Source: Armatimonadota bacterium | Lineage (GTDB): Bacteria; Armatimonadota; Zipacnadia; Zipacnadales; UBA5352 | Assembly: GCA_034722055.1 (NCBI GenBank) | Contig: JAYENL010000038.1 | Coordinates: 23,677 to 87,676, forward strand | Length of the DNA: 64,000 bases | Direction of reading: 5' to 3' | Shown here: positions 33,642 to 55,352 of the stretch, piece by piece | How positions within the stretch are numbered: the stretch's first letter is position 1 | How the letters are laid out: the number at the start of each line of letters is the position of its first letter | Position numbers and translations under genes: made by a program | The notes under the pieces: generated by a model | Database searches by the model: none | What the model saw: only the letters and a program-made list of their open reading frames with translations | Told to the model about the DNA's origin: nothing

Positions 33642-34622
33642 ATGACTGACGACGCGGCGGAGATCAGACCGGACCGCTACCACTGCACCTTCGGACCTCA
33701 CGATCCAATCGCCAGGATCGAGCAGGGCCGGGAGGCCGTGGTGTGGTGTGTCGATGCCCGGGGCCTGGACGAGAACGGTGAGGCCATCGGCGTCGAGGAC
33801 CTTGCGGGACCGCCCGGCGCCCGCCGGCAGATCAGCAACCCGGTGACGGGCCCCATCCACGTCGAGGGTGCCGAGCCGGGCGACGCCTTAGCCGTGCATC
33901 TGCTTGAGGTGGCGCCGACCCGCCCGTGGGCGTGGTCGGCGGCCCACAGCGACTTCGGCCTCTTCAGCACCGAGGACATCTACGGACCCACCACCTTCGC
34001 CCCGCCTCAGTGGCCTGACCGGGAGAGCTGCGAGTTCCGCTGGGACCTGGATCTCGAGCGTGGCACCGGGCGGCTGGAGCTGCAGCACAGTCGCCTCCGC
34101 GAGGTGGAGCTGCCTCTCTCGCCGTTCCTGGGCTGCCTGGGGGTGGCGCCGGAGCGTGGCGAGTGCAGAATGACCATGACCCCGAGCCGCCACGGCGGGA
34201 ACATGGACTGCCCCCAGGTCCGCGCCGGGACCACCGTCTACTTCCCGGTCTTCGAGGAGGGCGGTCTGCTGCTGATGGGCGACTGCCACGCGGCGCAGGG
34301 CGATGGCGAGCTATGCGGGGTGGGGCTGGAGGTGAGCTGCCGCGTGCGGCTGAGGGTGGAGGTCCTGGACGGCTGGACGATCCGCTGGCCCCGCGCGGAG
34401 GATGACACGCACATCATGACTATCGGCAGCGTCCGGCCCCTGCGCGCGGCCCTGGCGGCGGCCCAGGTGGAGCTGCTTGACTGGCTGGTGACTGACTACG
34501 GCTTCGACGCCCTCGAGGCCTGGCAGGTGCTCTCGCAGGTCGGCACGACTCGGATCGGCAACGTCGTGGACCCCAACTACTCCGTCGTCGCCCGCTTCCC
34601 GAAGGCCTACCTGCCCGAGTGA
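33642..34622 (+). CDS. Acetamidase/formamidase family protein
   Basis: NPVTGPIHVEGAEPGDAL, HGGNMD, GDCHAAQGDGELCG.GLE. Confidence 0.9.
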   Translation: MTDDAAEIRPDRYHCTFGPHDPIARIEQGREAVVWCVDARGLDENGEAIGVEDLAGPPGARRQISNPVTGPIHVEGAEPGDALAVHLLEVAPTRPWAWSAAHSDFGLFSTEDIYGPTTFAPPQWPDRESCEFRWDLDLERGTGRLELQHSRLREVELPLSPFLGCLGVAPERGECRMTMTPSRHGGNMDCPQVRAGTTVYFPVFEEGGLLLMGDCHAAQGDGELCGVGLEVSCRVRLRVEVLDGWTIRWPRAEDDTHIMTIGSVRPLRAALAAAQVELLDWLVTDYGFDALEAWQVLSQVGTTRIGNVVDPNYSVVARFPKAYLPE

Positions 34623-34703
34623 GCGCGCGGGACGCAGGCTCATGGCGGGGAACGCCAGGCGGACGCGTGAGGTCGAGTGTGACCGATGGCCCCGGAGGCC
34701 GCC

Positions 34704-35804
34704 ATGACGAGTCAGCTTGAGGAGGAACTGCGACGCCGGATAGCCGGCACCATCGAGACCGCAATCAGAGATGACGTCACGCCGGGCGCGGTGGTCCTGG
34801 TCGGCCGCGGCGACGAGGTGCTGTGCCACGAGGCGCTCGGACATCGGATGGTGCAGCCGGAGCGGCGGCCGATGAAGCTCGATACCGTCTTCGACGTGGC
34901 GTCGCTGACCAAGCCGGTGGCCACGGCTGTCTCGGTGCTGCAGCTCATCGAGCGGGAGGAGCTGTCGCTGGACACTCCGGTGCGCGCGATCCTGCCCGGG
35001 TTTACCGGCGATGGTCGCGAGTCGGCCACCGTCCGGCACCTCCTCACCCATTCGGCCGGGCTGCCGGCCTACCGCAACTACCTCGACGAGCTCGGCGAGG
35101 ACATCCCGCCCGCGCAGCGGCGCAGGCGGGTGGTCGAGGACGTCTGCTCGCTTCCCCTCGAGCACGCGCCCGGCGAGGGCTTCCTGTACTCCTGCCTGAG
35201 CTACATCCTGCTGGCCTCAGTCGTGGAGGCGGTCGCCGAGACGCCGCTGGATGAGCTGGCGGCACAGAGCATCTTCCGGCCGCTGGGCATGGCGGACACC
35301 TGCTTCAACCCGCCGCCGGAGCTTGCGGCCCGCTGCGCCGCCACGGAGCAGCTTCCCGACGGCGTGCTGTGCGGCGTGGTGCATGACGAGGACGCCCGGT
35401 ACCTGGGCGGCGTGGGCGGCAACTCGGGGCTGTTCTCGACCGCCCGGGACCTGTCGCGCTTCGTGCGGGCGATCCTGGCCGGCGGAGAGCTCGACGGCGT
35501 GCGGATCCTCAGCGAAGGCAGCGTGCAACTGATGATCTCGCCGCAGCTTGAGGTGGGCGAGACCAGGCGGGGGCTGGGCTGGGACATCGCCAGCTCCTAC
35601 TCCCCGCAGGTCCGGGGCGGCTTCCCGCCGGGAGGCATCGGGCACAGCGGATACACAGGCACCTCGATCTGGGCCGACCCGCCAAGCGGGGTGTACGTGA
35701 TCCTGCTGACCAACCGCGTCCATCTGGGCCGCGATCGGGAGATCGGCCCGCTGCGGCGAGAGGTGGCGACGATCGCGGCGGAGGTGCTGCTCCCCGCGCA
35801 GTGA
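34704..35804 (+). CDS. Serine hydrolase, beta-lactamase class C / AmiE-like family
   Basis: SxxK (ASLTK), LLTHSAG, YSC, HSGYTG, LLTNR. ATG 34704 follows GGAGG; alternative start 34686. Confidence 0.88.
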   Translation: MTSQLEEELRRRIAGTIETAIRDDVTPGAVVLVGRGDEVLCHEALGHRMVQPERRPMKLDTVFDVASLTKPVATAVSVLQLIEREELSLDTPVRAILPGFTGDGRESATVRHLLTHSAGLPAYRNYLDELGEDIPPAQRRRRVVEDVCSLPLEHAPGEGFLYSCLSYILLASVVEAVAETPLDELAAQSIFRPLGMADTCFNPPPELAARCAATEQLPDGVLCGVVHDEDARYLGGVGGNSGLFSTARDLSRFVRAILAGGELDGVRILSEGSVQLMISPQLEVGETRRGLGWDIASSYSPQVRGGFPPGGIGHSGYTGTSIWADPPSGVYVILLTNRVHLGRDREIGPLRREVATIAAEVLLPAQ

Positions 35805-35852
35805 GCCCATGCGCGGCTGCGCGGGACTGTCGGCGACGAGAGGAGCCTGGTC

Positions 35853-37505
35853 ATGTGGTGGCGACCGATCCTGGTTGTTGTGATCCTGCTGCTGGAGGGT
35901 GTGGCGATGGCGTCGATCGATGATGGGCTGGTAGGACACTGGCCGCTTGCCGGGGACTGCCGCGACCACTCCGGCCACGGCAACGATGCCGTGAACCACG
36001 GGGTGAATCTGCGCGCCGAAGGCCCCCGAGGCGAGCAGGACGGGGCTGCGCTGTTCGACGGCCGGTCGAGCTGGCTGGAGGTGCCCGATGATCCCAGCCT
36101 GCGGGTCGGCAGCGGCGACTTCACGATCGCGGCATGGCTGCGCACCGATGAGCTGCTGGACGATGTCATCGGCGACATCTGCTCCAGCTACGATCCCGCA
36201 AGCCGCCGGGGATTCAACCTGACTGTGGTCAACCATGCCGGGATGACCTCCAGCCAGAGCAACTACCGGACGCTGCAGTTCGGCATCGACGACGGGCGCA
36301 TGACCGGCTGGCAGGACTCCGGCCGGCCGGGCGAGGCGGTGTTCATCGCTTCCATGGCGGTGCACGGTGGGGACCTCTACGTCGGCACCTGTGAGCCAGA
36401 CGAGGGCCAGGCGGGCCGCGTCTACCGCTACCTCGGCGAGGACGAGTGGGAGGACTGCGGCAGCCCGGACGGCAGCAACTCCGTGATGGCGATGGCGGTG
36501 CACGAGGGCGACCTCTACGTGGGCTCAGCGGCCTACAACACGAGGGGCTCGCTTCTGCCGGCGGCGGAGAACACGGCGCCCGGCGGGCATGTCTACCGCC
36601 TCGCGGAGGATGGGAGCTGGACCGACTGCGGGCAGATCCCCCAGGCGCGGGCGACCTACTGCCTCACCGTCTACCGGGGCGATCTCTACGGCATCGCCAT
36701 GTACGTGCCGGGCGTCTACCGCCACGATGGAGGCACGGACTGGGCCTACTGTGGCACGCCCGGCGACCAGCGCTCCATGGCCCTGGCGGTGCACAATGGC
36801 TCCCTGTGGGCCAGCGGCAACGGCGGCGCAGGCGTGCACGGCTATCTCGGCGGCGAGGACTGGGAGTTCTGTGGCAGGCAGGAGGACAACACCCAGACCT
36901 ACTCCTTCGCCATTCACGAGGGCGACATGTACGTGGGGACGTGGCCGGACGGCTCGGTGCATCGCTACGAGGGAGGCACCCGGTGGACGAACGTCGGCCG
37001 CCTGGGCCGGGAGAAGGAGGTCATGGCCATGGCGGTCTACAACGGGCGGATGTACGCCGGAACGCTGCCGCTGGGCCAGGTCCATCGCTTCGACGGGCCC
37101 CACACCTGGACCCTCACCGGACAGCTCGATACCACGCCGGACGTTCCCTACCGCCGGGTCTGGACCATGGCGATCCACGACGGCTGGCTGTACGCCGGCA
37201 CGCTGCCCTCGGGCCGCGTCTACCGGATGCAGGCCGGCACCGTCACCACCTACGACCGACCGCTGCCTCCGGGGTGGTGCCACATTGCCGCCGTGCGCGA
37301 GGGCGAGGCCCTGAAGCTATTCGTAAATGGCGCACTTGTGGGCCGCTCGGCCGCCCGGCATCCCGCCGACTACGACATCGACAGCGGGACGCCTCTGCGC
37401 ATCGGCTTCGGCCAGCACGACTACCTCAACGGATCACTGACCGATGTCCGCGTCTACCGTCGGGCGCTGACCGCTGGGGAGGTCGCCGCCCTGGCGGAGC
37501 AGTGA
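35853..37505 (+). CDS. Secreted LamG-like jellyroll protein interrupted by a beta-propeller
   Basis: GLVGHWPL...DFTIAAW at the N-terminus, WCHIAAV...LFVNG...DVRVYRRALT at the C-terminus, with repeated MAVHxGxLYVG blades between. Confidence 0.7.
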   Translation: MWWRPILVVVILLLEGVAMASIDDGLVGHWPLAGDCRDHSGHGNDAVNHGVNLRAEGPRGEQDGAALFDGRSSWLEVPDDPSLRVGSGDFTIAAWLRTDELLDDVIGDICSSYDPASRRGFNLTVVNHAGMTSSQSNYRTLQFGIDDGRMTGWQDSGRPGEAVFIASMAVHGGDLYVGTCEPDEGQAGRVYRYLGEDEWEDCGSPDGSNSVMAMAVHEGDLYVGSAAYNTRGSLLPAAENTAPGGHVYRLAEDGSWTDCGQIPQARATYCLTVYRGDLYGIAMYVPGVYRHDGGTDWAYCGTPGDQRSMALAVHNGSLWASGNGGAGVHGYLGGEDWEFCGRQEDNTQTYSFAIHEGDMYVGTWPDGSVHRYEGGTRWTNVGRLGREKEVMAMAVYNGRMYAGTLPLGQVHRFDGPHTWTLTGQLDTTPDVPYRRVWTMAIHDGWLYAGTLPSGRVYRMQAGTVTTYDRPLPPGWCHIAAVREGEALKLFVNGALVGRSAARHPADYDIDSGTPLRIGFGQHDYLNGSLTDVRVYRRALTAGEVAALAEQ

Positions 37506-37594: not shown

Positions 37595-39145
37595 TCACTG
37601 CTGCCGCCGGATGGGGACAGGCTCGGCGTCCGCGATCTGGAAGGCGTAGAGCTTCGCCATGTCCAGCCGGAAGCGCAGGCGTACCGCCTGCCCGGCGTGC
37701 TGCGACAGGTCGGCGCCCTCACGCCACATAGGCGTGAGGGCCACATCGTCGGCGTGAACCGGCTCTGAGGTGGCGAGCACCTCGCCATCCAGGTCGAGAA
37801 GCTCCACGGTGACCGAGCTGCCGGCCTCGTTGGGCGGGTTCGGCGGTGCCAGACCGGCATTCGCGTTGATCTCCAGCCGGGTGCCCCGAAGCACGAAGGG
37901 CTTCGTCGTTACGGTTCCGGGCCTCCCGGCGGCGTCGAGAGAGACGAAGCCATCGAGCCGCTGCACGTAGCGGTGGATGCCGCCCTCGATTCTCCGGCCG
38001 TACCACCGGCCGATGTGCGGGGTCTCGTGCTCGACGCCGTACATCCACAGCTCGTCTCCGGCGCGGATCATGCCGGAGCCCATGTAGGCGGAGTAGCCGA
38101 TCTGATCGCCCAGGCGCCTGGCGTCGGGGTCGATGGGCACGTACGCCTGGCGGAACCGGCGGTCGAGGTGAATGCCGTCGCGGCTGGTGGCGAAGGTGAT
38201 CTCGCACAGCCCGTTATCGTAGTGATGCACTGACGGGAAGAACAGGTAGACGCCCGGCGCGAAGGGATAGATGGTGGCGGCGGAGTTGTAGAGCCCGCAT
38301 CCCCACTCGCCACCGGGATCGTTGGCGTCGGGAGCGGCGATCTCCACCGCCCGCGGGAACTCGCGGAACACCTCGGACTCGCTGCGGCCGATCCGCCGCG
38401 AGGCCTGCCCGATGGGGTTGCCATCCGCGTCTTTGCGATAGACGTTGACGCGGGTGTAGGCGACGTACTTCTCGATGTAGGGGTCCCAGAAGCACACGTT
38501 CTGGGTGTCGGTGCCACCAGACGGGAACAGCAGGCCGTGCGGGGTGTCGATGGACCTCCAGTGGATGCCGTCGGCGGAGACCGCCCCGCTGATGCTGGTG
38601 TGCTGCGGGCAGCCCTCGTAGGGGTAGATGCGATAGAAGTCGCCGAAGATCATCTTGTACCTCTCATCCGGCGACGCCGCGTGCGGGTCAATGAACACGG
38701 AGCCCCCGTGCACGTACCCGCCGCACTTGCCCACCATGATGAGGTTGTTATCCGCGGATCCCTGGAACTCGAACTGCCCCAGGCTCGGCTTGTCCCAGTG
38801 GATCCCGTCCCCGGACTCCGCGTACCCCGTTCTGTCCATCCAGTGGCCCTTGATGTCGGGGTGCCAGTACCAGCTTCCGTAGTACATCCTGAACCGCTCG
38901 CCATCGCGCAGGACCGTTACGTAGCCCAGCCCCGTCGGCTCCCACGGCGCATCGGCCCGCAGCACCTCGCCGGCCCTGCGCGCGGGGTTGAGGGTGAACT
39001 GAACGCCCTGCATCGCCTCGACGATGTCCTCGTCGATGAAGAGCTGCTTGTTGCCGCCGATCTCCCGCACGTCGTCGGCCCATGCGCTGCCGCTGGCTGA
39101 AATCGCCGCCGCGAGCGTCACGATCACACCGGTCCTGGGCTTCAT
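37595..39145 (-). CDS. Secreted five-bladed propeller glycosidase-like protein (GH32/43/130-like fold)
   Basis: ATG 39145 after GGGAGG; signal peptide ending SAWA/D. KQLFID, YAESGDGIHW, SADGIHW, TSRDGIH, RLDGFVSL. Confidence 0.6.
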   Translation of the reverse strand: MKPRTGVIVTLAAAISASGSAWADDVREIGGNKQLFIDEDIVEAMQGVQFTLNPARRAGEVLRADAPWEPTGLGYVTVLRDGERFRMYYGSWYWHPDIKGHWMDRTGYAESGDGIHWDKPSLGQFEFQGSADNNLIMVGKCGGYVHGGSVFIDPHAASPDERYKMIFGDFYRIYPYEGCPQHTSISGAVSADGIHWRSIDTPHGLLFPSGGTDTQNVCFWDPYIEKYVAYTRVNVYRKDADGNPIGQASRRIGRSESEVFREFPRAVEIAAPDANDPGGEWGCGLYNSAATIYPFAPGVYLFFPSVHHYDNGLCEITFATSRDGIHLDRRFRQAYVPIDPDARRLGDQIGYSAYMGSGMIRAGDELWMYGVEHETPHIGRWYGRRIEGGIHRYVQRLDGFVSLDAAGRPGTVTTKPFVLRGTRLEINANAGLAPPNPPNEAGSSVTVELLDLDGEVLATSEPVHADDVALTPMWREGADLSQHAGQAVRLRFRLDMAKLYAFQIADAEPVPIRRQQ

Positions 39146-39278
39146 CGCCAACGCCTCCCTGCGTGCCATCTGGACCACGTCCGGGGTCTGCGGCGAACGC
39201 CGTTGGAGTAGCATCGGCTCAAAGGCACGCACGTCTTGTCCAAGCCATAGGTGGCCAGTCGCACGGCTCTGGCACGGC

Positions 39279-40034
39279 TTAGCCGAAAACCGAGTACAGG
39301 AGCACGGCCGCTGCGGCCATCAGCACGGCGTAGACAACGCGCCGGAAGAGCAGTTCGTCCACGCGGTAGTGCGCCGGCGCCCCCAGCGCCAGCCCCGCGA
39401 GGGTGAAGGGCACGCACACGGCCGCGACACGCAGGATGTCGATGGTGAGGCTCCCGGCGGCCACCCAGCGGCTGATCAGAATCGTGTTCAGCACCAGCCA
39501 CAGCAGGCTCATGGTCACGCGGAAGAGACTCTTATCGGGAAGCGCCCGGGCGCAGTAGACGACCATCAGCGGCCCCCCGGCCCCGAAGGCGCCGTGGATG
39601 ACGCCACCCAGCGGCAGCAGCGCGGTCATGGCGCCACCCTTCCAGCCGCTGAGCCCATCCTCGCCCACCTCCGCGGGCATGGGATGGATGAGCCCGTGGA
39701 TGCTCACACCCAGTGTGAAGACCCCGAGCACGAGCTTCAGCGGCCCCTCGGGCATGGCGCTGGCCATCCACATGCCGACGGGCAGCCCAACGACCACGAA
39801 GCCCAGGAGCTTGCCGAAGGCGGGCCAGCGGATGTGCCGCCAGGCCTCGATGACGATGAGGACCGCCAGCAGCCAGGCCTGCATCACGAGCACGGGCACG
39901 GCCATGTCCAGGCCGATGAGCAGCGTCACGAAGGGCAGGGCCAGCACCGTAGCGCCGAAGCCGGTGATGCTGCCCTGGAAGTTGGACAGGAAGACGACCA
40001 GGAAGACCAGCCCGTATCGCGTGAACTCGCTCAC
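39279..40034 (-). CDS. TauE/SafE family sulfite/sulfonate exporter
   Basis: GSITGFG..LALP and GAFGAGGP duplicated motifs; about 8 TM segments. Confidence 0.85.
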   Translation of the reverse strand: MSEFTRYGLVFLVVFLSNFQGSITGFGATVLALPFVTLLIGLDMAVPVLVMQAWLLAVLIVIEAWRHIRWPAFGKLLGFVVVGLPVGMWMASAMPEGPLKLVLGVFTLGVSIHGLIHPMPAEVGEDGLSGWKGGAMTALLPLGGVIHGAFGAGGPLMVVYCARALPDKSLFRVTMSLLWLVLNTILISRWVAAGSLTIDILRVAAVCVPFTLAGLALGAPAHYRVDELLFRRVVYAVLMAAAAVLLYSVFG

Positions 40035-40046
40035 ATCGGCAACCCG

Positions 40047-40547
40047 CTACCCGAGGGTCTCCATCTCACGGTCCCGGGCCACGTCGCCGCGGGCGCAGAT
40101 CTCGTCGCGGGCCTCCTCCCAGAAGTCCAGGACCTCCTGTGGGATGCCGGGCACGTCCTGGAACTGGGCGGTCAGGAAGATCTCCGCCATACGGCAGCCC
40201 ATGTCCGGCGTCACCAGGCTCTCGCCCATGCACATGACGTTGGCGTCATTTATCTTGCGGGCGAACTCCGCCGCCATGGGGCCCTCGCACGGGACGGCAC
40301 AGATCCCCTCGAACTTGCCGGCCGCCAGGGCCATTCCGGTGCCGGAGCCGCAGCAGAGGATGCCGCGCTCCGCCTCCCCCTGCTGCAGCACGCGCGCGGC
40401 CCGCTCGCCGATGGACGGGAACTTCACGAAGGTGGACGTGTCGTGGCAGCCGACATCGATCACCTCGTGCCCATTCTCCTCCAGCCACTCCTTGACGGCG
40501 CTCTTGAGCAGGAAGCCCTTGACGACTGAGCCGACGACGACCTTCAT
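40047..40547 (-). CDS. RpiB/LacAB family sugar isomerase with atypical anion-binding residues (SqwI-like candidate)
   Basis: GHEVIDVG, GILCCGSGTGM, NDANVMCMG; lacks GxDH, RxHN and RHxxR. Confidence 0.8.
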   Translation of the reverse strand: MKVVVGSVVKGFLLKSAVKEWLEENGHEVIDVGCHDTSTFVKFPSIGERAARVLQQGEAERGILCCGSGTGMALAAGKFEGICAVPCEGPMAAEFARKINDANVMCMGESLVTPDMGCRMAEIFLTAQFQDVPGIPQEVLDFWEEARDEICARGDVARDREMETLG

Positions 40548-41500
40548 TGTGCTCCGCCCTCTCCCTGTTTGCAGGCTTGCTTGATGTGCTCCACGTTCAT
40601 GTTGTGCTTGTTGAGCAGGTACTGCTCGGTGGCGACCTCACCGAACTGATCGTGCACGCCCAGCCGCTTGACGGGCGTGGGCAGCCTCTCGCAGAGCACC
40701 TCGCAGACCGCGCCACCGAGGCCGCCGATCACGCTCTGGTTCTCCACGGTCACCACCCAGCCGGTCTTGCGGGCCGACTCCAGCAGGCTCTCCTCGTCGA
40801 AGGGCTTGACCGAGGCGTAGTGGAGGTGATCCGCGGCTACCCCCTCCTCGGCCAGCTCCTCGGCAGCCTGCTTTGCGAACTGCGTCGTCCAGCCGGTGCT
40901 GACGAGCGTGGCGGCGTCGCCCTCGCTCATCTGCACAGCGGTCTCGGGGTCGAAGACGTAGTCGTCGTCGAAGATCTGCGGCTGCACCGGCCGGATCATC
41001 TGCATGTAGGCCGGGTGGCCGTACTGTGCCATCCACCGCACACAGGAGGACAGCTCGTAGACGTCGCAGGGCGAGAAGACCACCATGTTGGGCATGGCCC
41101 GCATGATGGCCAGGTCCTGGAAGCACATGTGTGTGCCGCCGTTGGCCCCGGTGGTGATGCCCGGCGCAGTGCCCACGATCTTCACGTTGGCGTCGGCGTA
41201 GGCCACCGAGATGGTGACCTGGTCGTAGACGCGGCGCGTGGCGAAGCAGGTGAAGCTGGCGCAGAAGGGGATCATCCCATCCACGGCTAGCCCGGCACCG
41301 ATGCCGATCATGTCCGCCTCGGCCACCCCGGCGTCGATGAACCGCTCGGGGTGAGCCTCGGAGTAAGTGGGGATGGTCCCTGAGGCCTTGCCAAGATCGG
41401 CCTCGACGACGACGATGTCGGGGTCGCTGTCCGCCAGGTCCACCAGCGTCAGAGCGTAGACCTTGCGCATCTCAAGCTCGTGCAGTGGGACATCGGTCAT
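40544..41500 (-). CDS. Split transketolase, C-terminal subunit
   Basis: ERFIDAGVAEADM, RVYDQV, GGTHM, LAIMRAMPN, VTVEN...GGLG. Confidence 0.92.
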   Translation of the reverse strand: MTDVPLHELEMRKVYALTLVDLADSDPDIVVVEADLGKASGTIPTYSEAHPERFIDAGVAEADMIGIGAGLAVDGMIPFCASFTCFATRRVYDQVTISVAYADANVKIVGTAPGITTGANGGTHMCFQDLAIMRAMPNMVVFSPCDVYELSSCVRWMAQYGHPAYMQMIRPVQPQIFDDDYVFDPETAVQMSEGDAATLVSTGWTTQFAKQAAEELAEEGVAADHLHYASVKPFDEESLLESARKTGWVVTVENQSVIGGLGGAVCEVLCERLPTPVKRLGVHDQFGEVATEQYLLNKHNMNVEHIKQACKQGEGGAQ

Positions 41501-42360
41501 GGCTGTTCGACCTCGTAGGGGAGAGTATAGTCCTGGCGTCTCAGGCCGGACATGTACCTCTGGAAGGTCTCCTCGTCCGGGATCTTGATGTTGTGGCTGT
41601 CGGGGCGGTTCTCGGCCACCGTGCAGTCGCGGGCCTTGCAGGTATGGGCGATGATCATGGTGGGCTTGCCGGAGACCTGCTGGGCGGCCGTGATGGTGTC
41701 GTAGATGTCGTCCCAGTCATGGCCGTCCATCTCCATGACCTCCCAGTTGAAGGCCCGCCACCTGTCCACCAGGGGCTCGAGGGTGATGACCTCGTCGGTG
41801 AACCCGTCGATCTGTAGCTTGTTGTAGTCGGTGATCGCCACGAGGTTGTCGAGCTTGTTGTGGCCGGCGAACATGCCGGCCTCCCAGATCATGCCCTCGT
41901 CGCTCTCACCGTCGCCCACGATGCAGAACACCGTGTGATCCTGGTTGCGGATCCGCGCGGCCATGGCGAAGCCGCAGGCGCACGAGAGGCCCTGTCCCAG
42001 CGACCCGGCGGTCATGTCTATGCCCGGCGTCTGCAGCCGGTCCACGTGGCTGGGCAGCCGGGTGCCGTCGGCGTTGATGGTCTTCAGCTCCTCCTTGGGG
42101 AAGAAGCCCTGATAGGCGAGGGCCACGTAGAGCACGGGGCCGGCGTGGCCCTTGGAGAGCACCAGGCGGTCGCGGCCGGGCCACTTCGGGTTGTTCGGAT
42201 CGTAGCTCATGATCCGCCAGTAGAGCGTGATGATGATCTCCACCAGGCTCAGCGACCCGCCCAGGTGCCCGGAGCCCGACCGGCAGATCATGTCGGTCAT
42301 CACGTACCGGAACTCGCCCGCCAGGTCGTCGAACTTCTCTCTGTCGAATTCCTCTGGCAT
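41497..42360 (-). CDS. Split transketolase, N-terminal ThDP-binding subunit
   Basis: SGHLGGSLS, RDRLVLSKGH, GSLGQG, GDGE..EG.IWE...DYN. ATG 42360 after GAGGAG. Confidence 0.92.
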   Translation of the reverse strand: MPEEFDREKFDDLAGEFRYVMTDMICRSGSGHLGGSLSLVEIIITLYWRIMSYDPNNPKWPGRDRLVLSKGHAGPVLYVALAYQGFFPKEELKTINADGTRLPSHVDRLQTPGIDMTAGSLGQGLSCACGFAMAARIRNQDHTVFCIVGDGESDEGMIWEAGMFAGHNKLDNLVAITDYNKLQIDGFTDEVITLEPLVDRWRAFNWEVMEMDGHDWDDIYDTITAAQQVSGKPTMIIAHTCKARDCTVAENRPDSHNIKIPDEETFQRYMSGLRRQDYTLPYEVEQP

Positions 42361-42371
42361 GTGATCTCTCC

Positions 42372-43499
42372 TCACAACATGCTGCGATAGATCTCGCGAA
42401 GCTGATCCGGCGCAACCTCCCGGGGGTTGTTGTCCATCAGGGGGTGGAAGCTGCTCTCAACGATCTCGTCGATGTCCTCCTCCTCCACGCCGATCTCGTC
42501 CAGCGTGGTGGGCAGGGGCGAGGCGGCCTTCATCCGCGCCACCTCGTCCGCGAGCTCCAGCATATCCCCGCAGCCTGCCGCCCGGGCCAGCGCCTGCCCC
42601 CGCTCACCCATGGCCGGGGCGTTGAAGCGGATGAAGTGATCCAGCGTCATGGCGCACGCGGTTCCGTGCGGGAGGTGATAGGTGGCTGAGAACGGGAACG
42701 AGCAGGCGTGCACCGCCGCGTTCTGGGGCGCCTGGAAGGCCAGCCCACCCAGCAGCGCCGCCATCGACATGCCCTCCCGGGCCTCCATGTCCCCCGGCTC
42801 CTGAAGCGCCCCGGGCAGGTGTTCGAAGACCAGCCTGACCGCCTCCAGCGCGAAGAGGTCGCAGATGGGCTGATGGTTCTTCGACCAGTAGCCCTCCACC
42901 GCGTGCGCCAGGGCGTCGAAGCCGGTGGAGGCGGTCACCATGGGCGGCATGGAGGCGGTCACATCGGCGTCGATGAGCGCTACGGTGGGGTAGAAGTTGT
43001 CGTGCACCAGGGGGGCCTTGACGCCCTTCTCCGGGTCGCCGAGCACCGCGTTGGGCGTCACCTCGCTGCCGGTCCCGGCCGTGGTCGGCATGGCGATCAG
43101 CGGCAGGTGCCTGTCGTCGAGCGTGGCCCCCTCCGAGTGGTACTGCCGGGCCAGGCCGCCCTGCACCGCCACTGAGCAGGCCACCTTGGCGCAGTCCATT
43201 GAGCTGCCGCCGCCGGCGGCGACGACCACGTCGATCTCCTCGTCGCGGATGGTCTTCACCAGCGCATCCACCATCCCGACCGTGGGGTTGGGCTCCACCT
43301 CCGCGAACAATGGCGCATCAGGGCCGAGTATCCCGCGGATCTCCTCCATCAGCGGCAGCTCAGCGAGCCCGCTGTCGGTCACCAGCACCGGCGATTCGCC
43401 GAGCTCCGAGACGACTCCCGGAAGCTGCCTCCGAACCCCAGGTCCGAACACGATCTCAGTCGGCTGCCAGTACCTCCAACCATCGCCCTCAAGCTGCAA
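42372..43499 (-). CDS. Iron-containing (group III) alcohol dehydrogenase
   Basis: PTEIVFG, VEPNP, GGGS.MD.AK, PTTAGTGSE, metal ligands DALAH/H/PHG. TTG 43499 after GGGAGA; the upstream part of the listed 819-aa ORF is a shadow frame. Confidence 0.88.
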   Translation of the reverse strand: MQLEGDGWRYWQPTEIVFGPGVRRQLPGVVSELGESPVLVTDSGLAELPLMEEIRGILGPDAPLFAEVEPNPTVGMVDALVKTIRDEEIDVVVAAGGGSSMDCAKVACSVAVQGGLARQYHSEGATLDDRHLPLIAMPTTAGTGSEVTPNAVLGDPEKGVKAPLVHDNFYPTVALIDADVTASMPPMVTASTGFDALAHAVEGYWSKNHQPICDLFALEAVRLVFEHLPGALQEPGDMEAREGMSMAALLGGLAFQAPQNAAVHACSFPFSATYHLPHGTACAMTLDHFIRFNAPAMGERGQALARAAGCGDMLELADEVARMKAASPLPTTLDEIGVEEEDIDEIVESSFHPLMDNNPREVAPDQLREIYRSML

Positions 43500-43758
43500 T
43501 GCCCGCTCTCTCCCTGTCCGACGTGATAGTGGCGGCTGGGACGGACTTCGCGCAGCCGCCGCCAATCCCCTTCTCCGGGAGGCGCCGCCTCCGGGCAGGA
43601 GACACCGCACGCGCCGGCGAAAGGACCCTGGCGACACACGCCGGCCCTTCGGTGCCGGAGGCGTCTCGCGACGATGCAGCACTCCCGGATCGGCCGGGTG
43701 CGGCCGCGGATTGTCGGTTGCGGGGGGCGCCCGCAACCTGGGTAAGCCAGGTAAGTAC

Positions 43759-43781
43759 TGGGGCGCGGGCGCCCGCGCCCG
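43759..43781. repeat. REP-like palindrome
   Basis: TGGGGCGCGGGCGCCCGCGCCCG; one mismatch to the reverse complement of 31522-31544. Confidence 0.55.
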
Positions 43782-43865
43782 CGCGTTCCACCGACTCCTG
43801 GAGTTCGCACCCGACCGGCCCGCGCAAGGGTCGGCGCCGAATCTCGCCGTCAGGAGGCCACGAGC

Positions 43866-45029
43866 ATGGCAACGACACCGTTGATCCCCGATGCTGAGTT
43901 CGAGCAGCGATGGCAGACGCTGCAGGAGAAGATGGCCGAGAACGACCTGGATGTGGTCATCGCCCACGGCCACGAGGCCGACCCGGCCAACGTCCGCTAC
44001 CTCTCGGACTACTGGCCCCTGTTCGAGACCGGGGGCGTGGCCGTGGGGCGCAGCGGTGAGCCGGTGCTCCTCATCGGTCCCGAGAGCCTCACCTTCGCTG
44101 AGGATCGCAGCCGGATCCCGACCATCATGCAGGTGCTGGAGTACCGGGAGTCCGCGGAGCCGGACTACCCCGGGATGGAGCTGGACAGCTTCGAGGACGT
44201 CTTCGCGGCCGTGGCCGGGGGCGAGGTCAGCCGCATCGGCATCGCCGGCCTGTCGGTCATGCCCATGACCATCTACAGCGCCATCGAGGAGGCTGCAGGC
44301 GAGGCCGAGGTGGTCCGTGCCGACGACCTGCTGACGGAGATGCGCCAGATCAAGAGCGAGAGCGAGATCGCCTGCATGCGGGAGGCCTTCCGCATCAGCG
44401 AGGAGGCCACCGAGGTGGTCCTGGAGGAGATGAAGCCGGGGATGACCGAGCAGCAGGTGGTGGGCATCGCCCAGGGCGCCATGTACGCGGCGGGCGCCGA
44501 GTACGAGGGCCATCCCACCTACGTCCTCAGCGCGGAGGCCAGCACCCACGCCATCGGCCGCCCCAGCCCCAAAGAGCTCCGCCAGGGCGAGATGATCCAG
44601 CTCAACATCGGGGCCCTGGTCAGCGGCTACTCCTCCTCCGTCGGCCGCCCGGTGTGCTTCGGGCCCATGCCCGACGCCATGCGAGAGCTGGTGGAGGTGG
44701 GGCTGGAGGCGCACCACAAGACCATGGAGCTGATGCGGGCGGGCATCCCCGCCAAGGAGGTCGTCATCAAGTACGAGGAGTTCATCGAGGAGAAGGGCTA
44801 CGCCGAGAACCTGCTCTACGGCCCCTGCCACGCCATAGGGCTGATGGAGGTGGAGCGGCCCTGGATGGAGAGCAGCTCGGAGTACCTCCTCGAAGAGAAC
44901 ATGACCTTCCAGGTGGACACCTTCCTGTATACCGAGGACTTCGGTCTGCGATGGGAGGATGGCGTGCGCGTCACCAGCGGGGGCGTGGAGATGTTGTCGG
45001 ACCGCTTCCTGGAGGTCATTGAGCTCTAA
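43866..45029 (+). CDS. M24 / creatinase-fold hydrolase with degenerate metal site
   Basis: AGGAGG RBS; NVRYLS, RQIKSESEIACMREA, HAIGL, GLRWED. Confidence 0.85.
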   Translation: MATTPLIPDAEFEQRWQTLQEKMAENDLDVVIAHGHEADPANVRYLSDYWPLFETGGVAVGRSGEPVLLIGPESLTFAEDRSRIPTIMQVLEYRESAEPDYPGMELDSFEDVFAAVAGGEVSRIGIAGLSVMPMTIYSAIEEAAGEAEVVRADDLLTEMRQIKSESEIACMREAFRISEEATEVVLEEMKPGMTEQQVVGIAQGAMYAAGAEYEGHPTYVLSAEASTHAIGRPSPKELRQGEMIQLNIGALVSGYSSSVGRPVCFGPMPDAMRELVEVGLEAHHKTMELMRAGIPAKEVVIKYEEFIEEKGYAENLLYGPCHAIGLMEVERPWMESSSEYLLEENMTFQVDTFLYTEDFGLRWEDGVRVTSGGVEMLSDRFLEVIEL

Positions 45030-45102
45030 GGCAGTCGCAAATCACACGCCGGAAGTCGCAAGCGACGTGAACGGCTAACGCGAACAGTCGCGGTCAGGAC
45101 GT

Positions 45103-45149
45103 GTGGCCGTCGCCGTTAGCTGGCAACTGATGACTGATGACTGGAGACT
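45103..45149. repeat. Degenerate heptamer/ACGGC module
   Basis: gtggccgtcgccgttagctggcaactgatgactgatgactggagact. Confidence 0.55.
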
Positions 45150-45152
45150 ATC

Positions 45153-46037
45153 ATGTCCGACATCACCGTCGTGCTGGGCTTTGACATGGAGACGGATGTG
45201 GGGAGCTGGTCGCCCTACTACCAGGGCATCCAGCAGGGAACCCCGCTGATCGTGGACCTGCTGGAGGCGCAGGGGGCCACCGGCACGTTCTTCTTCACCG
45301 GCGATGCCGCCCGGCAGTTCCCGGACATCGTGCGGACCGTGGATGAGGCGGGCCATGAGGTGGGCTGCCACTCGCTGTATCACGAGACCGTGGGGGACCC
45401 CATCTTCGAGATCCCGGGCGTCAAGCCGCTGCTGCCCGAGGAGGTCCCGCTGCGGCTGCGGGTGGCCACACAGTGGGTGGCCGAGAGCCTCGGTGACTCG
45501 CCGGTGTCCTTCCGCGCTCCCCGGCTGTGGGGCAGCACGGCCATGCTCACGGCCCTCCAGGACCTGGGGTATGTGGCCGACGCATCCTACCCCCTGTACT
45601 ACTACGAGGAGCGCCTGGCGCCGTATCATCCCAGCCGCGAGGACTGGACGCAGCCCGGCGAGATGCGCATCCTGGAGATCCCCAACTTCGCCGATATGAC
45701 CATCGACAGCACTGACGAGTACGGGCGCGACCGCGACCAGTGGCCGCTGTTCCGCACCGAGAGCGCCGACAGGCTCATGGCGCACATCGACGCCTTCATC
45801 GGCTACGTGCGCCAGCGGGGAGAGCCCGCGGTCCTGTGCTTCTACTTCCATCCCTGGGAGTTCGTGGAGATGCCCACCAGGATGCACTACGGCGAGGGCA
45901 CCGTGATCCCGGACTACTTCCTGGTAAAGAACTGCGGCGAGTACGCGCTGGAGCAGCTCGGCGTTCTGCTGACCCTGCTCGATGAGCGCGGCGCGGACTT
46001 CACGACCGCCCGCGACCTTGCCGCGAGCTGGGACTGA
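45153..46037 (+). CDS. Polysaccharide deacetylase (NodB/CE4, PuuE/PgdA-like), cytoplasmic
   Basis: GFDMETD, TFFFTG, GHEVGCHSLYH, SFRAP, YFHPWE. Confidence 0.85.
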   Translation: MSDITVVLGFDMETDVGSWSPYYQGIQQGTPLIVDLLEAQGATGTFFFTGDAARQFPDIVRTVDEAGHEVGCHSLYHETVGDPIFEIPGVKPLLPEEVPLRLRVATQWVAESLGDSPVSFRAPRLWGSTAMLTALQDLGYVADASYPLYYYEERLAPYHPSREDWTQPGEMRILEIPNFADMTIDSTDEYGRDRDQWPLFRTESADRLMAHIDAFIGYVRQRGEPAVLCFYFHPWEFVEMPTRMHYGEGTVIPDYFLVKNCGEYALEQLGVLLTLLDERGADFTTARDLAASWD

Positions 46038-46071
46038 CCGGGCAGCGGTCCGCGAGACAGGAGGCATTCCG

Positions 46072-46449
46072 ATGAGCGCTGGCGAGGGACATCGCGTGTG
46101 GATCTTCCCCGACGGGGACCTCCCGCCCAGGGGCCAGCCCGACCTGCCGCTGGAGGGGCACGAGTCCCTGATCGTGCTCAATACGGGCGATGAGGACGCG
46201 CAGATCGAGATCGACATCTACTTCCCTGACCGGGAGCCCGAGGAGGGGCTGAAGGGTGAGGTGCCGGCGCGCCGGGTGCGCTGCTTCCGGCTCGACCAGC
46301 CGGTGGGCGACCGGGGCTTCGAGATCCCCTTCGGGCAGTACGCCCTGCGGCTGCGCTCCAGCGTGAACGTGGTGGCGCAGATCGGGCGCGCCGACGTCCG
46401 CCAGGAGAGGCTGGCCTACTACACCACCATAGGCTTCGGCAGCGGCTGA
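46072..46449 (+). CDS. Anabaena sensory rhodopsin transducer (ASRT) family small-molecule-binding protein
   Basis: G.RVWIFPDG.LP...GHESLIVLNTGDEDA.I.I.IYF.DREP...VPARRV; ATG 46072 after AGGAGG. Confidence 0.85.
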   Translation: MSAGEGHRVWIFPDGDLPPRGQPDLPLEGHESLIVLNTGDEDAQIEIDIYFPDREPEEGLKGEVPARRVRCFRLDQPVGDRGFEIPFGQYALRLRSSVNVVAQIGRADVRQERLAYYTTIGFGSG

Positions 46450-46520
46450 TGCCGTTGTCGGCCCATCGAGCCTACCGCCGCTGGCTCCCGACTCGGGGAC
46501 CGCATCTGGAGGATCACCAT

Positions 46521-48791
46521 ATGAAGCTGGCCGATACCATCCCGTTCTCGACCGACCTTCGCTCGCCGCTGTGGACGGAGATCGCCTGCCGCCCCGGCGC
46601 CCGCCCGGAGGCAGGCGATGTGCGCATCGACGGCTCCTGGGAGGTGGTGGCTGAGGCCGAGGAGCCGGCTGTTGCCGCCGCTGCGGATACGCTCGAGGAC
46701 GTCCTTCACCTCTCATACGGCGTTCCCAGGGCCAGAGCCGCCGAGCGGCCGATCCTGCTGCGCATTGACCCGACGCTGGGCGCCAGTCCCGAGGTTCACT
46801 CCCTGCGGGTAGGCGAGGACGGAATCGAGGTCCGGGGCGCGGGGCCAGCAGGGGTGCTGCATGGTGTCTTCCGGCTTATCGGGCTGATGCGCGAGCGTGG
46901 CGGACCCTTCGTGCCGCCCGTGGAGGAGACGCGGAGGCCGCTGTTCCGCCACCGCATCCACCGCTCGCCCCTGTCCCCGTTCTACGTGGAGGAGCTGACC
47001 GGTTATGCGGGGCCGCCCTTTGAGAGCAAGTGGCGGGAGACGGAGTGCGAGTATCCAGCGTGGCTCGAGGAGGACGCCGGGCCCGACAGCTTCTACGACG
47101 ACAATCTGCTCCTGCGGCTGGCGATGCACGGCTTCAACGGCATCTGGATCCGCGGCGCGCTGCGCAAGTTCGCCAGGTGCGAGGTCTTCCCGGAGTTCGG
47201 CGCGGACGCCGAGCGCATCCTGTCCGAGCTGCAGCGCCTGTGCCGCCGGGCGGCCCGGTTCGGCATCCGCGTCTTCCTGTATCTGAACGAGCCCATGGGC
47301 CTGGATGAGGATGACCCGTTCTGGCAGCGCCACCCGCAGGTAAAGGGCCCGCTGTGTCACCTCAAGCCCGTCAACTACCTGTGCAGCAGCACGCAGGAGG
47401 TGAAGGACTACCTCCGCCAGTCCTGCGAGTACGTCTTCACGCACGTCCCGGAGCTCGCCGGCGTGCTGCTTATCACCGCCTCGGAGTATCCCAGCCATTG
47501 CTACTGCCACACCAAGCGTCCCGGCAGCGCCGAGCAGCTTGAGGAGATGATCGAGGAGGGTCAGCTCTGCCCGCGCTGCGCCGAGCGGACGCCCCAGGAG
47601 GTCGTCGGCGAGATCATCACCCTCATCCGCGACGGCGTGAAGGCCGCCAAGCCTCAGGCCGGGGTCATCGCCTGGAACTGGAGCTGGAACATGTACGAGC
47701 CCGACCCTCAGCGGGGCGTCCTGGAGCAGCTTCCCGACGACGTCATCGTCATGGGGGATTTCGAGCGCGGGCAGCCCACCTCGGCGCTGGACTTCGAGTA
47801 CACCAATGACGAGTACTCCATCAAGGTCATCGGTCCCTCGCCGCGCTTCACTGGCGTGGCGGACTTTCAGCGCGAGCGCGATCTGCCCGTCTACGCCAAG
47901 GTCCAGATCGGCACCACGCACGAGAACCCCGACGTGCCCTACCTCCCGGCGCTGCAGAAGATCGCCCGCAAGTGGCAGGCGCTCGTGGAGTCCGGCTGCA
48001 CCGGCATGATGACCTGCTGGAACTTCGGCAATATGCCCTCCCTGGCCACCGAGGTCGCCGGGGAGATGACCTGGGACCCGCAGCCACAGGTGGAAGAGGC
48101 GCTGAACAGGGTTGCCGCCAGGCACTTCGGGCCGGAGGCCGCCGGGAAGATGGTGGCCGGCTGGGAGAAGCTCTGCCAGGCGCAGGACGACTTCCCCACC
48201 AGCATCCCGGTGATGTACTACGGTCCGGTCTCGCGCGGTCCGGCCTTCCACCTGGTCTTCGACCAGATCGACCGCAAGTTCCCCCGCTCATGGATGCTGG
48301 ATACCGACGTGGAGGGCGATCGGCTGGACTGGGTGCAGCCCTTCGGTGCCCAGAAGGTGCTGGAGTGCTACCGTGCGGTTGCCGAGCAGTGGGCTGAGGG
48401 CCTGGAGCTGATGGAGCCGGCGCTGGAGGAGGCGCAGGGATGGCCCCGGGAGCAGCTTGCTCGGGAGATCAGCGTGGCCCGGTTCTGCCTCTCACAGCTT
48501 GTCAGCGCCGCGAACGTCACGGGCTTCCTGCTGGCACGCAACGCCTTCTATGCCTCCGATGATCCCCGCGAGAGGCGCAGGCTGCTGGATCGGATGGACC
48601 TGATCTGCCGCGATGAGCTTGAGAACGCGTCGTCGGCGATCCCGCTGTGTGAGGCGGACTCCCGGCTGGGGTGGCATGGGGAGGCGTACGGGTATCTCAT
48701 CAACCGGGAGCTGATCGAGCGCAAGCTGGAGGGCCTCCGGGAGATCGTGGAGCACCGCATACCCGCGGAGCGCGCGAAGCTGAGCGAGTGA
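46521..48791 (+). CDS. Cytoplasmic glycoside hydrolase-like protein (GH20/GH67 domain 2 + TIM barrel)
   Basis: ATG 46521 after GGAGG. EVHSLRV...IEVRG...GVLHG, GFNGIWI, RAARFGIRVFLY, CPRC, VIAWNW; no signal peptide. Confidence 0.6.
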   Translation: MKLADTIPFSTDLRSPLWTEIACRPGARPEAGDVRIDGSWEVVAEAEEPAVAAAADTLEDVLHLSYGVPRARAAERPILLRIDPTLGASPEVHSLRVGEDGIEVRGAGPAGVLHGVFRLIGLMRERGGPFVPPVEETRRPLFRHRIHRSPLSPFYVEELTGYAGPPFESKWRETECEYPAWLEEDAGPDSFYDDNLLLRLAMHGFNGIWIRGALRKFARCEVFPEFGADAERILSELQRLCRRAARFGIRVFLYLNEPMGLDEDDPFWQRHPQVKGPLCHLKPVNYLCSSTQEVKDYLRQSCEYVFTHVPELAGVLLITASEYPSHCYCHTKRPGSAEQLEEMIEEGQLCPRCAERTPQEVVGEIITLIRDGVKAAKPQAGVIAWNWSWNMYEPDPQRGVLEQLPDDVIVMGDFERGQPTSALDFEYTNDEYSIKVIGPSPRFTGVADFQRERDLPVYAKVQIGTTHENPDVPYLPALQKIARKWQALVESGCTGMMTCWNFGNMPSLATEVAGEMTWDPQPQVEEALNRVAARHFGPEAAGKMVAGWEKLCQAQDDFPTSIPVMYYGPVSRGPAFHLVFDQIDRKFPRSWMLDTDVEGDRLDWVQPFGAQKVLECYRAVAEQWAEGLELMEPALEEAQGWPREQLAREISVARFCLSQLVSAANVTGFLLARNAFYASDDPRERRRLLDRMDLICRDELENASSAIPLCEADSRLGWHGEAYGYLINRELIERKLEGLREIVEHRIPAERAKLSE

Positions 48792-52078: not shown

Positions 52079-52270
52079 GGTCGAGTGCTGCTTGCGGGCG
52101 TTCTGGCTTCAGGCGTGCTTCTGGTGTTGCATAGCGCTTGGGCGAGTATCGTCCTGGAGTTTGTCCGGCAGAGCGTGACCGTCGTGCCGGTAATCGTACT
52201 ATTCTCCCGTCGGCTGGTCCTGCTGGACGCGCATGACCGCCGGCGGGCGTCTGAACAGGGGACAACCGTT

Positions 52271-53146
52271 GTGAGCAAGCCGCTCGTAGCCCGGATCAAG
52301 GCGCGCATTCCCAAGCCGGTAAAGGAGGCGGTGCTCAGCGCCAAGCGCCTGCCGCGTCTGATGACCAGTCACAGGCGCGTGCTGCCTGATTACATCATAT
52401 TCGGCGCCATGCGGTGCGGGACATCGTCGCTGTATCACAATCTCACGGACCACCCGCAGGTGCTGCAGGCCTTCCGCAAGCAACTGCGGTTCTTTGACCG
52501 CGAGTTCCAGCGCGGGCTCGAATGGTACCGCGCTCACTTCCCGCTGCAGTCCGCCATGGAGCGCATCCAACGCGAGGCCGGAGGCGCCTTCACCGGCGAG
52601 GCAAGCCCGGAGTACATCTTCCATCCGCTGGCCCCCGAGCGCATCTCGGACACGCTCCCGAACGTAAGGCTCATCGCTCTGGTGCGCGATCCTGTAGAGC
52701 GGGCGTGGTCTCACTACAAACATGCCGTTCGCATCGAGGTAGAGAGCTTACCATTCGAAGAGGCGCTGAAGCGGGAGGACGAACGGCTGGCGGGTCAGCT
52801 CGAGCGGATGCGGAGCGACGAGTCCTGCGATCGGACCTACCAGGACTTCTCGTACATTTCGCAGGGCATCTACGCCGAGCATCTGCAGGCCTGGTTTGAG
52901 CACTTCCCGCGGGAGCAGATTATGATCGTGCGCAGCGAGGACATGTTCGCCGAACCCCAGCGGGTGATGTCCGAGGTCGGCGCGTTCATCGGGCTGGGCG
53001 AGTGGACGCCGGACTACAGGGCCTTCAACAGAGCGCGCCCGGGTGATATGCCGCCGGAGATCAGGCGGCGGCTGACTGAACTGTTCGCGCCACACAACGA
53101 GCGCCTCAGCGAGCTGCTGGGCAGGGACATGGCCTGGGATGAGTAG
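52271..53146 (+). CDS. PAPS-dependent sulfotransferase (heparan O-/N-sulfotransferase-like fold)
   Basis: PDYIIFGAMRCGTSSL, GEASPEY, LVRDPVERAWSHY, GIYAEHL..WF. GTG 52271 preferred; the ORF is open from 52085. Confidence 0.85.
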   Translation: MSKPLVARIKARIPKPVKEAVLSAKRLPRLMTSHRRVLPDYIIFGAMRCGTSSLYHNLTDHPQVLQAFRKQLRFFDREFQRGLEWYRAHFPLQSAMERIQREAGGAFTGEASPEYIFHPLAPERISDTLPNVRLIALVRDPVERAWSHYKHAVRIEVESLPFEEALKREDERLAGQLERMRSDESCDRTYQDFSYISQGIYAEHLQAWFEHFPREQIMIVRSEDMFAEPQRVMSEVGAFIGLGEWTPDYRAFNRARPGDMPPEIRRRLTELFAPHNERLSELLGRDMAWDE

Positions 53147-55342: not shown

Positions 55343-55352
55343 GTCCGCCCCT

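Follow-up and report, generated by a model that had tools for sequence, protein, structure and literature searches.

Two divergent sugar-catabolic operons in an Armatimonadota genome: a sulfo-transketolase-type cassette beside a probably independent, apparently undescribed deacylation module

The 64,000-nucleotide stretch of DNA analysed here, called the window throughout, comes from an Armatimonadota bacterium (C38:23677-87676 of G000; host genome 6.14 Mb, 92.7% complete), and our subject is the pair of operons that occupies its positions 37595-48791. By the ORF list, Pfam and NCBIfam, all ten open reading frames (ORFs) of this interval are intact and lie in the order and orientation given by a first-pass annotation made from the sequence alone, whose picture of two operons diverging around 43500-43865 is confirmed by the ORF layout and the family assignments. 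The reverse strand encodes an iron-dependent alcohol dehydrogenase (Fe-ADH), a split transketolase (TK), an RpiB-family isomerase, a TauE/SafE exporter and a leftmost protein of unnamed family; the forward strand encodes an M24/creatinase-fold protein, a CE4-fold amide hydrolase, a small ASRT protein and a cytoplasmic glycoside hydrolase. We conclude that these are two genuine sugar-catabolic gene sets placed back to back, neighbours in this genus alone and probably not parts of one pathway. With a probability of roughly two in three, the leftward set is the lower cassette of a sulfo-TK pathway that is fed from elsewhere, and the rightward set is an independent module for amino-sugar deacylation, widespread and apparently not described before. 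Each of the two offers a short list of purifiable enzymes for assay.

The leftward operon and its relatives

The gene nearest the intergenic region encodes the Fe-ADH (42372..43499, minus strand), whose start codon is the TTG at 43499, so that 43500-43865 is intergenic. In a PDB sequence search its best solved relative was 6JKO, the sulfoacetaldehyde reductase BkTauF, at 311 bits versus 198 for the next entry; passages of PMC6616044 (structures 6JKO/6JKP) describe mutagenesis in which F252, T257 and F265 matter. The window enzyme keeps F252 and F265, two of these three tested substrate residues, together with the equivalents of H261 and H275; it differs from BkTauF in having Asn for T257 and in standing in a sulfosugar rather than a taurine-catabolism context. 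The TauF-type motif was found in all 16 readable ADHs of the window's clade and in none of the four other Fe-ADHs of the host genome, and we regard the protein as a TauF/SqwF-like sulfoacetaldehyde reductase.

The N subunit of the transketolase (41497..42375, minus strand; PF00456) is SqwG-like, with 44-50% identity to the TK-N of canonical sulfo-TK loci. The SqwH-like C subunit (40544..41500, minus strand; PF02779/PF02780) carries the motif NGGTHM, which occurs in 36/36 readable clade rows and 11/11 canonical-type rows and is unlike the host's other two readable TK/DXS matches. In alignment it also lacks a His that serves as a phosphate ligand in ordinary transketolases, a loss common to 11/11 canonical-type loci, whose canonical status was judged by gene content and not by characterised sequences from Clostridium sp. 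MSTE9. The RpiB-family protein (40047..40547, minus strand; PF02502) retains the catalytic Cys and has lost the equivalents of His9, His98/99 and Arg109, which bears out its earlier description as atypical; [IV]NDAN is common to it and to RpiBs from canonical sulfo-TK loci. By its residue losses and position in the tree it appears to be a SqwI-like isomerase acting on sulfoerythrose. The TauE/SafE protein (39279..40034, minus strand; PF01925, E 6e-22) travels with the cassette, and probably plays the SqwE role of isethionate export.

A metagenome scan with the RpiB alignment, of which the best 80 of 574 relatives were kept, placed 14 in the window's own clade (56-77% identity). The next tier (39-48%) came mostly from clusters that combine a split TK with an SftI-like isomerase, SauS-like and ligase genes and a GH31 scoring above cut-off for the YihQ family, a composition that matches published sulfo-TK clusters as described in passages of PMC12890257 and PMC11659671. 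Identities to canonical-type loci were 38-50% for TK and 39-48% for RpiB, and in a quick tree the clade and canonical-type RpiBs separated from generic ones with a Shimodaira-Hasegawa-like approximate likelihood ratio (SH-aLRT) of 86. Three clade loci (L183, L270 and L273) have SqwD/K/L-like genes, 51-68% identical to canonical-type ones, in place of ADH and TauE; a SauS-like dehydrogenase (528 bits) and SftI-like isomerases are present in sister loci, and none of the clade loci holds a kinase gene. From the residue signatures, the canonical-cluster neighbours of RpiB and the SqwDKL-like swaps, we infer that the cassette ends in sulfoacetaldehyde. As far as sequence can tell, the leftward operon is strongly supported as the lower half of a known sulfonated-sugar pathway in new hosts, and the first-pass proposal of a sulfo-TK pathway is upheld by the ADH, TK and RpiB signatures and by the sister clusters.

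The reductive sulfo-TK pathway was reportedly described by Liu et al. in 2021, and its oxidative variant by Chu et al. in 2023. By analogy with the published pathway, the transketolase would move a C2 unit from a 6-sulfo-ketohexose (sulfofructose) to glyceraldehyde 3-phosphate, RpiB would convert the resulting sulfoerythrose to sulfoerythrulose, and a second transketolase cut would yield sulfoacetaldehyde, which the ADH would reduce to isethionate for export by TauE. As portrayed in passages of PMC12890257, PMC11659671 and PMC13219744, the reductive system of Clostridium sp. MSTE9 (SqvD, SqwGH, SqwI, SqwF, SqwE) resembles the window in its one-operon set of split TK, RpiB-type isomerase, Fe-ADH and TauE and in being kinase-free, whereas the window operon has no sulfoquinovose (SQ) isomerase, sulfoquinovosidase, mutarotase or importer. 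The oxidative system of Acholeplasma sp. (SqwD, SqwKL) is mirrored, so far as those passages go, in the three clade loci with swapped genes, whereas the window has the reductive ending. The hosts they name are Clostridia, Spirochaetes and Thermotogae; the present cassette extends sulfo-TK to Armatimonadota and Lentisphaeria/Kiritimatiellia. In the literature searched, without most subscription papers and in part as passages (PMC13436972 among them), we found among the papers listed no report that places sulfo-TK in these phyla.

Two variations within the clade deserve mention. At L271:3361-5262 and L274:5947-7803, an aldehyde:ferredoxin oxidoreductase gene (a Pfam match for L274) lies directly upstream of TK, replacing ADH or SqwD, and may be a third way to dispose of sulfoacetaldehyde. 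At L090 (G003), L266 (G076) and L272 (G095), a clade RpiB has no adjoining transketolase genes; in G003 (95% complete) a TK-C orthologue was not found and the locus holds only rpiB-tauE, which suggests decay or a separate use.

The rightward operon

The first rightward gene (43866..45029, plus strand; PF00557 and PF01321) encodes the M24 protein, which we treat as the core of the module. Compared with X-Pro peptidases, the positions of the two Asp metal ligands hold N247 and S258, that of the first Glu holds D351, and H322 and E364 stand at the others; both substrate-His positions are lost (I230, V329). Across 96 orthologous loci the first Asp is Asn in 85 and the second is Ser in all, and R232, Y255, S258, H322, E328, E330 and D351 are invariant (96/96). 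Judged by its dimetal ligands and substrate histidines, the predicted protein does not appear to be an M24B X-Pro metallopeptidase. As to the catalytic His and Glu pair of creatinase and DoeA, the alignment to X-Pro peptidases shows Ile at the His position that these enzymes share with the peptidases. Among M24-fold enzymes that are not peptidases, the ectoine hydrolase DoeA is paired with a deacetylase. A fold search put the window protein about equally close to prolidases, creatinase and DoeA, with template modelling scores of about 0.83-0.85 to the latter two. It shares the two-domain pita-bread fold with creatinase, DoeA/EutD and the dimethylsulfoniopropionate lyase DddP, and differs from them in sequence (about 20% identity), in its own invariant residues (R232, Y255, H322, E328, E330, D351, E364) and in its glycan context. 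That this fold can host other chemistry is illustrated by DddP, according to passages of PMC4108388.

The CE4-fold protein (45153..46037, plus strand) scores above the cut-off of PF01522, and the NodB-domain metal and catalytic motifs (D-x-E, H-x-x-x-H, R and H) are intact, consistent with a de-N-acylase. The ASRT protein (46072..46449, plus strand; DUF1362, PF07100) is a small beta-sandwich that may bind or anomerise sugar; sugar binding by this domain is put forward in passages of PMC2739507, and those from its main text mention no peptidase or deacetylase neighbours. The maximum 11-residue hydropathy of the four rightward proteins is 0.5-1.1, versus 2.4 for the leftmost ORF of the other operon; the absence of a strongly hydrophobic N-terminal stretch is in line with the cytoplasmic location first proposed for CE4 and the GH20-like protein.

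The last gene (46449..48791, plus strand; likely start 46521) encodes a glycoside hydrolase with a GH20b domain, a TIM barrel and a helical domain. Its model has a predicted local distance difference test score of 94.8; Foldseek listed GH67 and GH138 first, and VIA gave GH84, GH20 and GH138 at Z 19-21, with root-mean-square deviations of 4-9 over about 400-580 residues. Profile comparison aligned the beta-4 motif ITASE (E321, 99% conserved; numbering from 46524) with GH67 KADSE, and in hhalign the beta-4, beta-5 and beta-7 motifs aligned with one GH67 sequence at a probability of 87-95%, versus 0.7% for the barrel against one GH20 sequence. PF02838 is the only Pfam match: PF00728 is not hit, and beta-4 reads T-A-S-E with no Asp-Glu pair, unlike a GH20 enzyme. 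PF07488, the GH67 model, has no match in the host genome. Because the structure scores tie and the profile match is GH67-like, we place the protein in an unclassified family that is more uronidase-like than hexosaminidase-like, with 906 representatives at E<=1e-10. The first-pass label GH20-like holds for the N-terminal domain and not for the barrel, which looks closer to GH67. Architecture and acid motif link the protein to the GH67/GH138/GH84/GH20 fold group, from which it differs in its 10-16% identity, its four near-invariant cysteines and a beta-7 Lys for the GH67 Glu. These cysteines (Cys287, Cys326, Cys349 and Cys352; window 46524-48791) are 99-100% conserved in 106 family members and likely form a structural metal site inserted in the barrel.

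M24 orthologues with 60-91% identity occur in 35/60 order-level relatives, with one further fragment at a contig end. In the genome collection 402 M24 relatives were confirmed, and the best 80, which were examined, come from Armatimonadota, Lentisphaerae/Kiritimatiellae/Verrucomicrobiota, Planctomycetota, Acidobacteriota, Bacteroidota, Hydrogenedentota and Omnitrophota. A further 17 Lentisphaeria-class loci were selected for the length of their contigs, and all of these but L288 were added, which gives the 96 M24 loci, some of them second paralogues from single genomes. Neighbours in this set are CE4 (53), the GH20b-type glycosidase (46), ASRT (33), GHL6 (25), creatininase (16), DUF6786 (9), two types of Zn-dehydrogenase (9 and 7), amidohydrolase (7), GH29 (6) and PIG-L (5). 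At least one amide hydrolase is present in 74/96, and CE4 and creatininase occur together once. No locus combines ASRT with DUF6786 (p 0.025, with kin that are not independent). Two distant M24 paralogues likewise lie beside a PTE-family or PIG-L hydrolase. This repeated substitution by unrelated amide hydrolases argues for a deacylation step coupled to the M24 reaction, and the interchangeable neighbours strongly support the earlier suggestion that the operon deacylates an N-acyl amino sugar. In a plasmid collection, no M24 match of at least 60% was found among 172 records; the 50 matches listed were at 24-30%.

The module and its interchangeable partners are observed; the substrate and the order of steps that follow are our reconstruction. 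Inside the cell, the module would process an N-acylated amino sugar derived from the surface glycans of bacteria. Release of the sugar would fall to the GH67-like enzyme, with GHL6 and GH29 enzymes assisting in relatives, and its binding or anomerisation to ASRT (or DUF6786). CE4 would remove an N-acyl group, a task taken over in other loci by an enzyme of the creatininase, amidohydrolase or PIG-L family, and M24 would cleave another C-N bond, that of an amidine, amide or amine, at a site that has been rebuilt and is probably mononuclear. The likeliest substrate is an amino-uronic acid or a 6-deoxy amino sugar bearing acetamido, acetamidino or N-acyl-aminoacyl substituents, a guess that draws on passages of PMC3210612, which record amino-uronic acids, L-FucNAm and N-acetyl-alanyl amino sugars as constituents of bacterial glycans. 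Among the papers listed in the literature searched, none describes the M24 module or amidino-sugar degradation by such genes. Of the two operons the rightward one poses the larger question: it apparently represents a widespread, undescribed module for N-acylated sugars, conserved in at least seven phyla, in which a uronidase-like glycosidase of no classified family is joined by an M24 protein whose active site has been rebuilt. The module may serve to recycle unusual N-acylated sugars of bacterial surface glycans.

Two further forms of the module were seen. A second M24 subgroup (44-45%) in Lentisphaeria-class genomes (L277, L280, L282 and L290), often a second copy per genome, is paired with an amidohydrolase, and ASRT is present in three of the four loci. 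A Bacteroidota version (L147, L148, L152, L155 and L162) combines GHL6, unclassified hydrolases, M24, creatininase, DUF6786 and a major facilitator superfamily transporter; this set includes a cultured host, the Mariniphaga record of L162, and is therefore testable.

Entry into the leftward cassette and the question of coupling

The first-pass annotation recognised neither an SQ isomerase nor a sulfoquinovosidase in the window, and for a YihQ-type enzyme and a cassette-type isomerase this holds across the 92.7%-complete genome. Neither a YihQ-type query nor class II aldolase gave a tblastn match in the host genome. Its one GH31, on C254, scores 48.5 bits on the YihQ model versus 179 on alpha-xylosidase, and was rejected as a sulfoquinovosidase; GH188 candidates could not be told apart among 47 Gfo/Idh/MocA matches. 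Published sulfo-TK genomes can lack known sulfoquinovosidases of the GH31 and GH188 types alike (passages of PMC13219744), and the unusual part of the window's cassette is the missing isomerase. No SqvD/SftI isomerase is found in the window, and the best SftI-family match in the host genome reaches 139.5 bits versus a cut-off of 700, lies beside an FGGY-type kinase gene, and has orthologues in 14/60 relatives and 0/12 of those with an RpiB orthologue. A FucI-type gene on C154 was rejected as the missing isomerase, as its orthologue occurs in 0/12 cassette relatives. Also rejected were an AGE-family gene on C248 as YihS (best match, N-acylglucosamine 2-epimerase) and a sulfatase beside the cassette in genus g3, which is family-wide (13/17) and, barring an unrelated sulfatase in G047, adjoins the cassette in that genus alone. 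A cassette-type isomerase was found in 1/61 genomes and not in 11/12 cassette-bearing order relatives, and the SftI family model gives <=49 bits in five cassette genomes. Some other feeder must therefore exist: the missing isomerase is a genuine puzzle at the genome scale. Several genera in which a known SQ isomerase was not found have retained the whole cassette, and this points to an entry enzyme or a sulfosugar yet to be discovered.

The sulfo-ketose itself would come from an enzyme encoded elsewhere, for which a NagB-like or TIM-barrel isomerase is our best guess. Among 40 clade loci outside the window's genus, many of them short, we counted SftI-like isomerase in 9, class II aldolase in 10, NagB-like genes in 7, amidohydrolase in 7 and GH116-like genes in 3; sister loci thus have entry candidates of their own, and the cassette of the window's family stands alone. 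At L180:3523-13236, L183:546-13401, L264:1-13730, L265:8016-14950 and L270:1-13185, a class II aldolase and an amidohydrolase stand with NagB-like genes, one or two per cluster, and without a kinase; these sets are better candidates for amino-sulfosugar or C4-epimer (sulfofucose-type) entry than the window's M24 and CE4. Each of the three clade cassettes with a GH116-like gene (L264:4893-7289, L267:1564-3993 and L269:7819-10332) carries an SftI-like isomerase as well; the GH116-like gene may encode a new type of sulfoquinovosidase.

These sister loci raise the alternative that the cassette is fed from an amino-sulfosugar by NagB-like and amidohydrolase genes, not by M24 and CE4, the gene in question here being a NagB-like one on C186. 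We consider this unlikely: the host gene is 50-51% identical to its counterpart at cassette locus L271, but it sits among housekeeping genes, is family-wide (14/17 genomes), was not found in 4/12 cassette relatives, and so was rejected as a cassette-linked feeder that fails to track the cassette. A class II aldolase, as noted, was not found in the host genome, NagB-fold proteins could equally be plain isomerases, and an amino-sulfosugar substrate is named nowhere in the literature searched.

Direct coupling of the two operons, as the first-pass annotation had proposed, strikes us as distinctly unlikely. In that scheme the rightward operon would release an N-acyl-6-sulfo-hexosamine, CE4 would deacetylate it, and M24 would be a deaminating isomerase that gives sulfofructose to the leftward operon; more broadly, M24 would be a new kinase-free deaminase/isomerase of C6-acid hexosamines, acting on a sulfonate in cassette-bearing Armatimonadota, where it replaces SqvD, and on a carboxylate in most hosts, an idea we hold to be just as improbable. 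If true, the module would feed sulfo-TK from an unreported amino-sulfosugar. The divergent arrangement is kept in G001, a cassette-type isomerase is missing from most cassette relatives, and M24 consistently has a deacylase partner and has lost the peptidase ligands. Against this (INDEPENDENCE), the cassette adjoins M24 in 1/96 loci, namely L093 of a same-genus relative, so that the neighbourhood analysis gave no conserved linkage to split TK, RpiB, Fe-ADH and TauE; two other weak cassette matches in the 96 loci are apparently an AdhE-size protein and a DXS-like gene. In 10 other order-level relatives with both M24 and an RpiB orthologue, the genes lie apart, the gene upstream of M24 is not an ADH, and the cassette has other neighbours. 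An RpiB orthologue is present in 10/49 further M24 genomes and absent from 39/49. Of 151 Lentisphaeria-class genomes, 52 have M24, 8 the clade RpiB (plus one weak match) and 7 both, leaving 45/52 M24-bearing genomes with no cassette; in G225, a single 4.3-Mb contig, the two are about 1.9 Mb apart. TK occurs in 7/251 phylum-wide genomes, two of which, G333 and G472, both 97% complete, have no M24 orthologue; nor was one found in the cassette genomes G015 and G195. TauE, transaldolase or kinase genes do not recur beside M24, the upstream motif shared by the operons is only a genome-wide promoter-like one, and the proposed sugar was not found in the literature searched. With sister loci holding entry enzymes of their own, the claim that the rightward operon feeds the leftward one largely fails its own co-occurrence test. 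Two independent catabolic modules would instead have been brought back to back in this genus.

Several observations weigh against two independent modules with a sulfo-TK cassette on the left. M24 is present in 11/12 cassette genomes of the order sample versus 25/48 others (p 0.019), an excess that weakens to p 0.12 when the comparison is confined to genomes of 4.4 Mb and above, and in 7/8 versus 45/143 of the Lentisphaeria-class genomes (p 0.0025, not size-corrected, kin not independent); genome size partly explains the excess, and the residue leaves coupling possible. On the left, the absence of a cassette-type isomerase is joined by T257, essential in BkTauF, which is Asn in 14/16 clade ADHs and Thr in 2/16, by support of only 86 SH-aLRT in a quick tree for the grouping with SqwI-like RpiBs, and by SftI and SauS family scores of the sister genes that fall below the family cut-offs. 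On the right, the family call of the glycosidase is a tie by Z-score.

The ADH substitution could also suit a cassette acting on a non-sulfonated substrate, such as a sugar acid, or else a branched sugar or polyol that carries phosphate. Split TK and RpiB do occur in other pathways, for example of the apiose/erythritol type, and TauE is a broad family; but the phosphate-binding residues of TK and RpiB are lost as in canonical sulfo-TK loci, the ADH is TauF-type, sister loci carry the SauS-like dehydrogenase and SftI-like isomerases, and the clade loci are kinase-free, which makes this very improbable. Most doubtful of all is generic oligosaccharide or peptide salvage by an ordinary X-Pro peptidase and an ordinary hexosaminidase on the right, since, although databases label M24 'Xaa-Pro aminopeptidase', prolidases are its nearest structures and GH84/GH20 tie on top by Z-score for the glycosidase, two of five metal ligands are changed, both substrate His are lost, beta-4 ITASE aligns to GH67 KADSE with no Asp-Glu pair, and M24 is tightly linked to interchangeable deacylases across phyla.

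The intergenic region and other neighbouring features

The divergent intergenic region (43500..43865) contains the motif GCAGGA-N16-19-GCGAA upstream of M24 (window 43595-43621). The genome contains 255 sites of this motif, and one shuffle of it gave 136; most sites lie outside ORF cores, where the motif is enriched, and across the genome its orientation favours downstream genes by 108 to 34. It is possibly a common promoter of the lineage. A shared operator for both operons was rejected, as the motif is a genome-wide, promoter-like one, and a sigma-70 scan gave no promoter-like sites. The region is about 120 bp longer than in G001, from which a segment of that length with GC-rich inverted repeats (window about 43696-43818) is absent.

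The leftmost ORF of the reverse strand (37595..39232; likely start about 39145) had been called a secreted propeller glycosidase. It is probably secreted, but the propeller and glycosidase labels rest on feature-level likeness to a BNR/sialidase cluster (0.92, a score the tool flags as often due to chance); the ORF matches no Pfam family and, by sequence, nothing meaningful in the PDB, and is possibly a beta-propeller hydrolase. Homologues adjoin the cassette in two genomes, G001 and G008, the latter with 25-26% identity. With 12 further tblastn matches in the genome and no conserved place beside the cassette, it was rejected as a dedicated glycosidase and does not belong among the conserved genes of the cassette.

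Farther along, window 52085-57464 holds a sulfotransferase, a second CE4, a GT4 glycosyltransferase and a DUF6785/6784 membrane protein; it looks like a surface-glycan synthesis locus unrelated to the two operons. On the other side, window 31670-37505 is a convergent operon for an uncharacterised protein, an acetamidase/formamidase, a beta-lactamase-fold serine hydrolase and a LamG-domain protein, and it is syntenic in G001.

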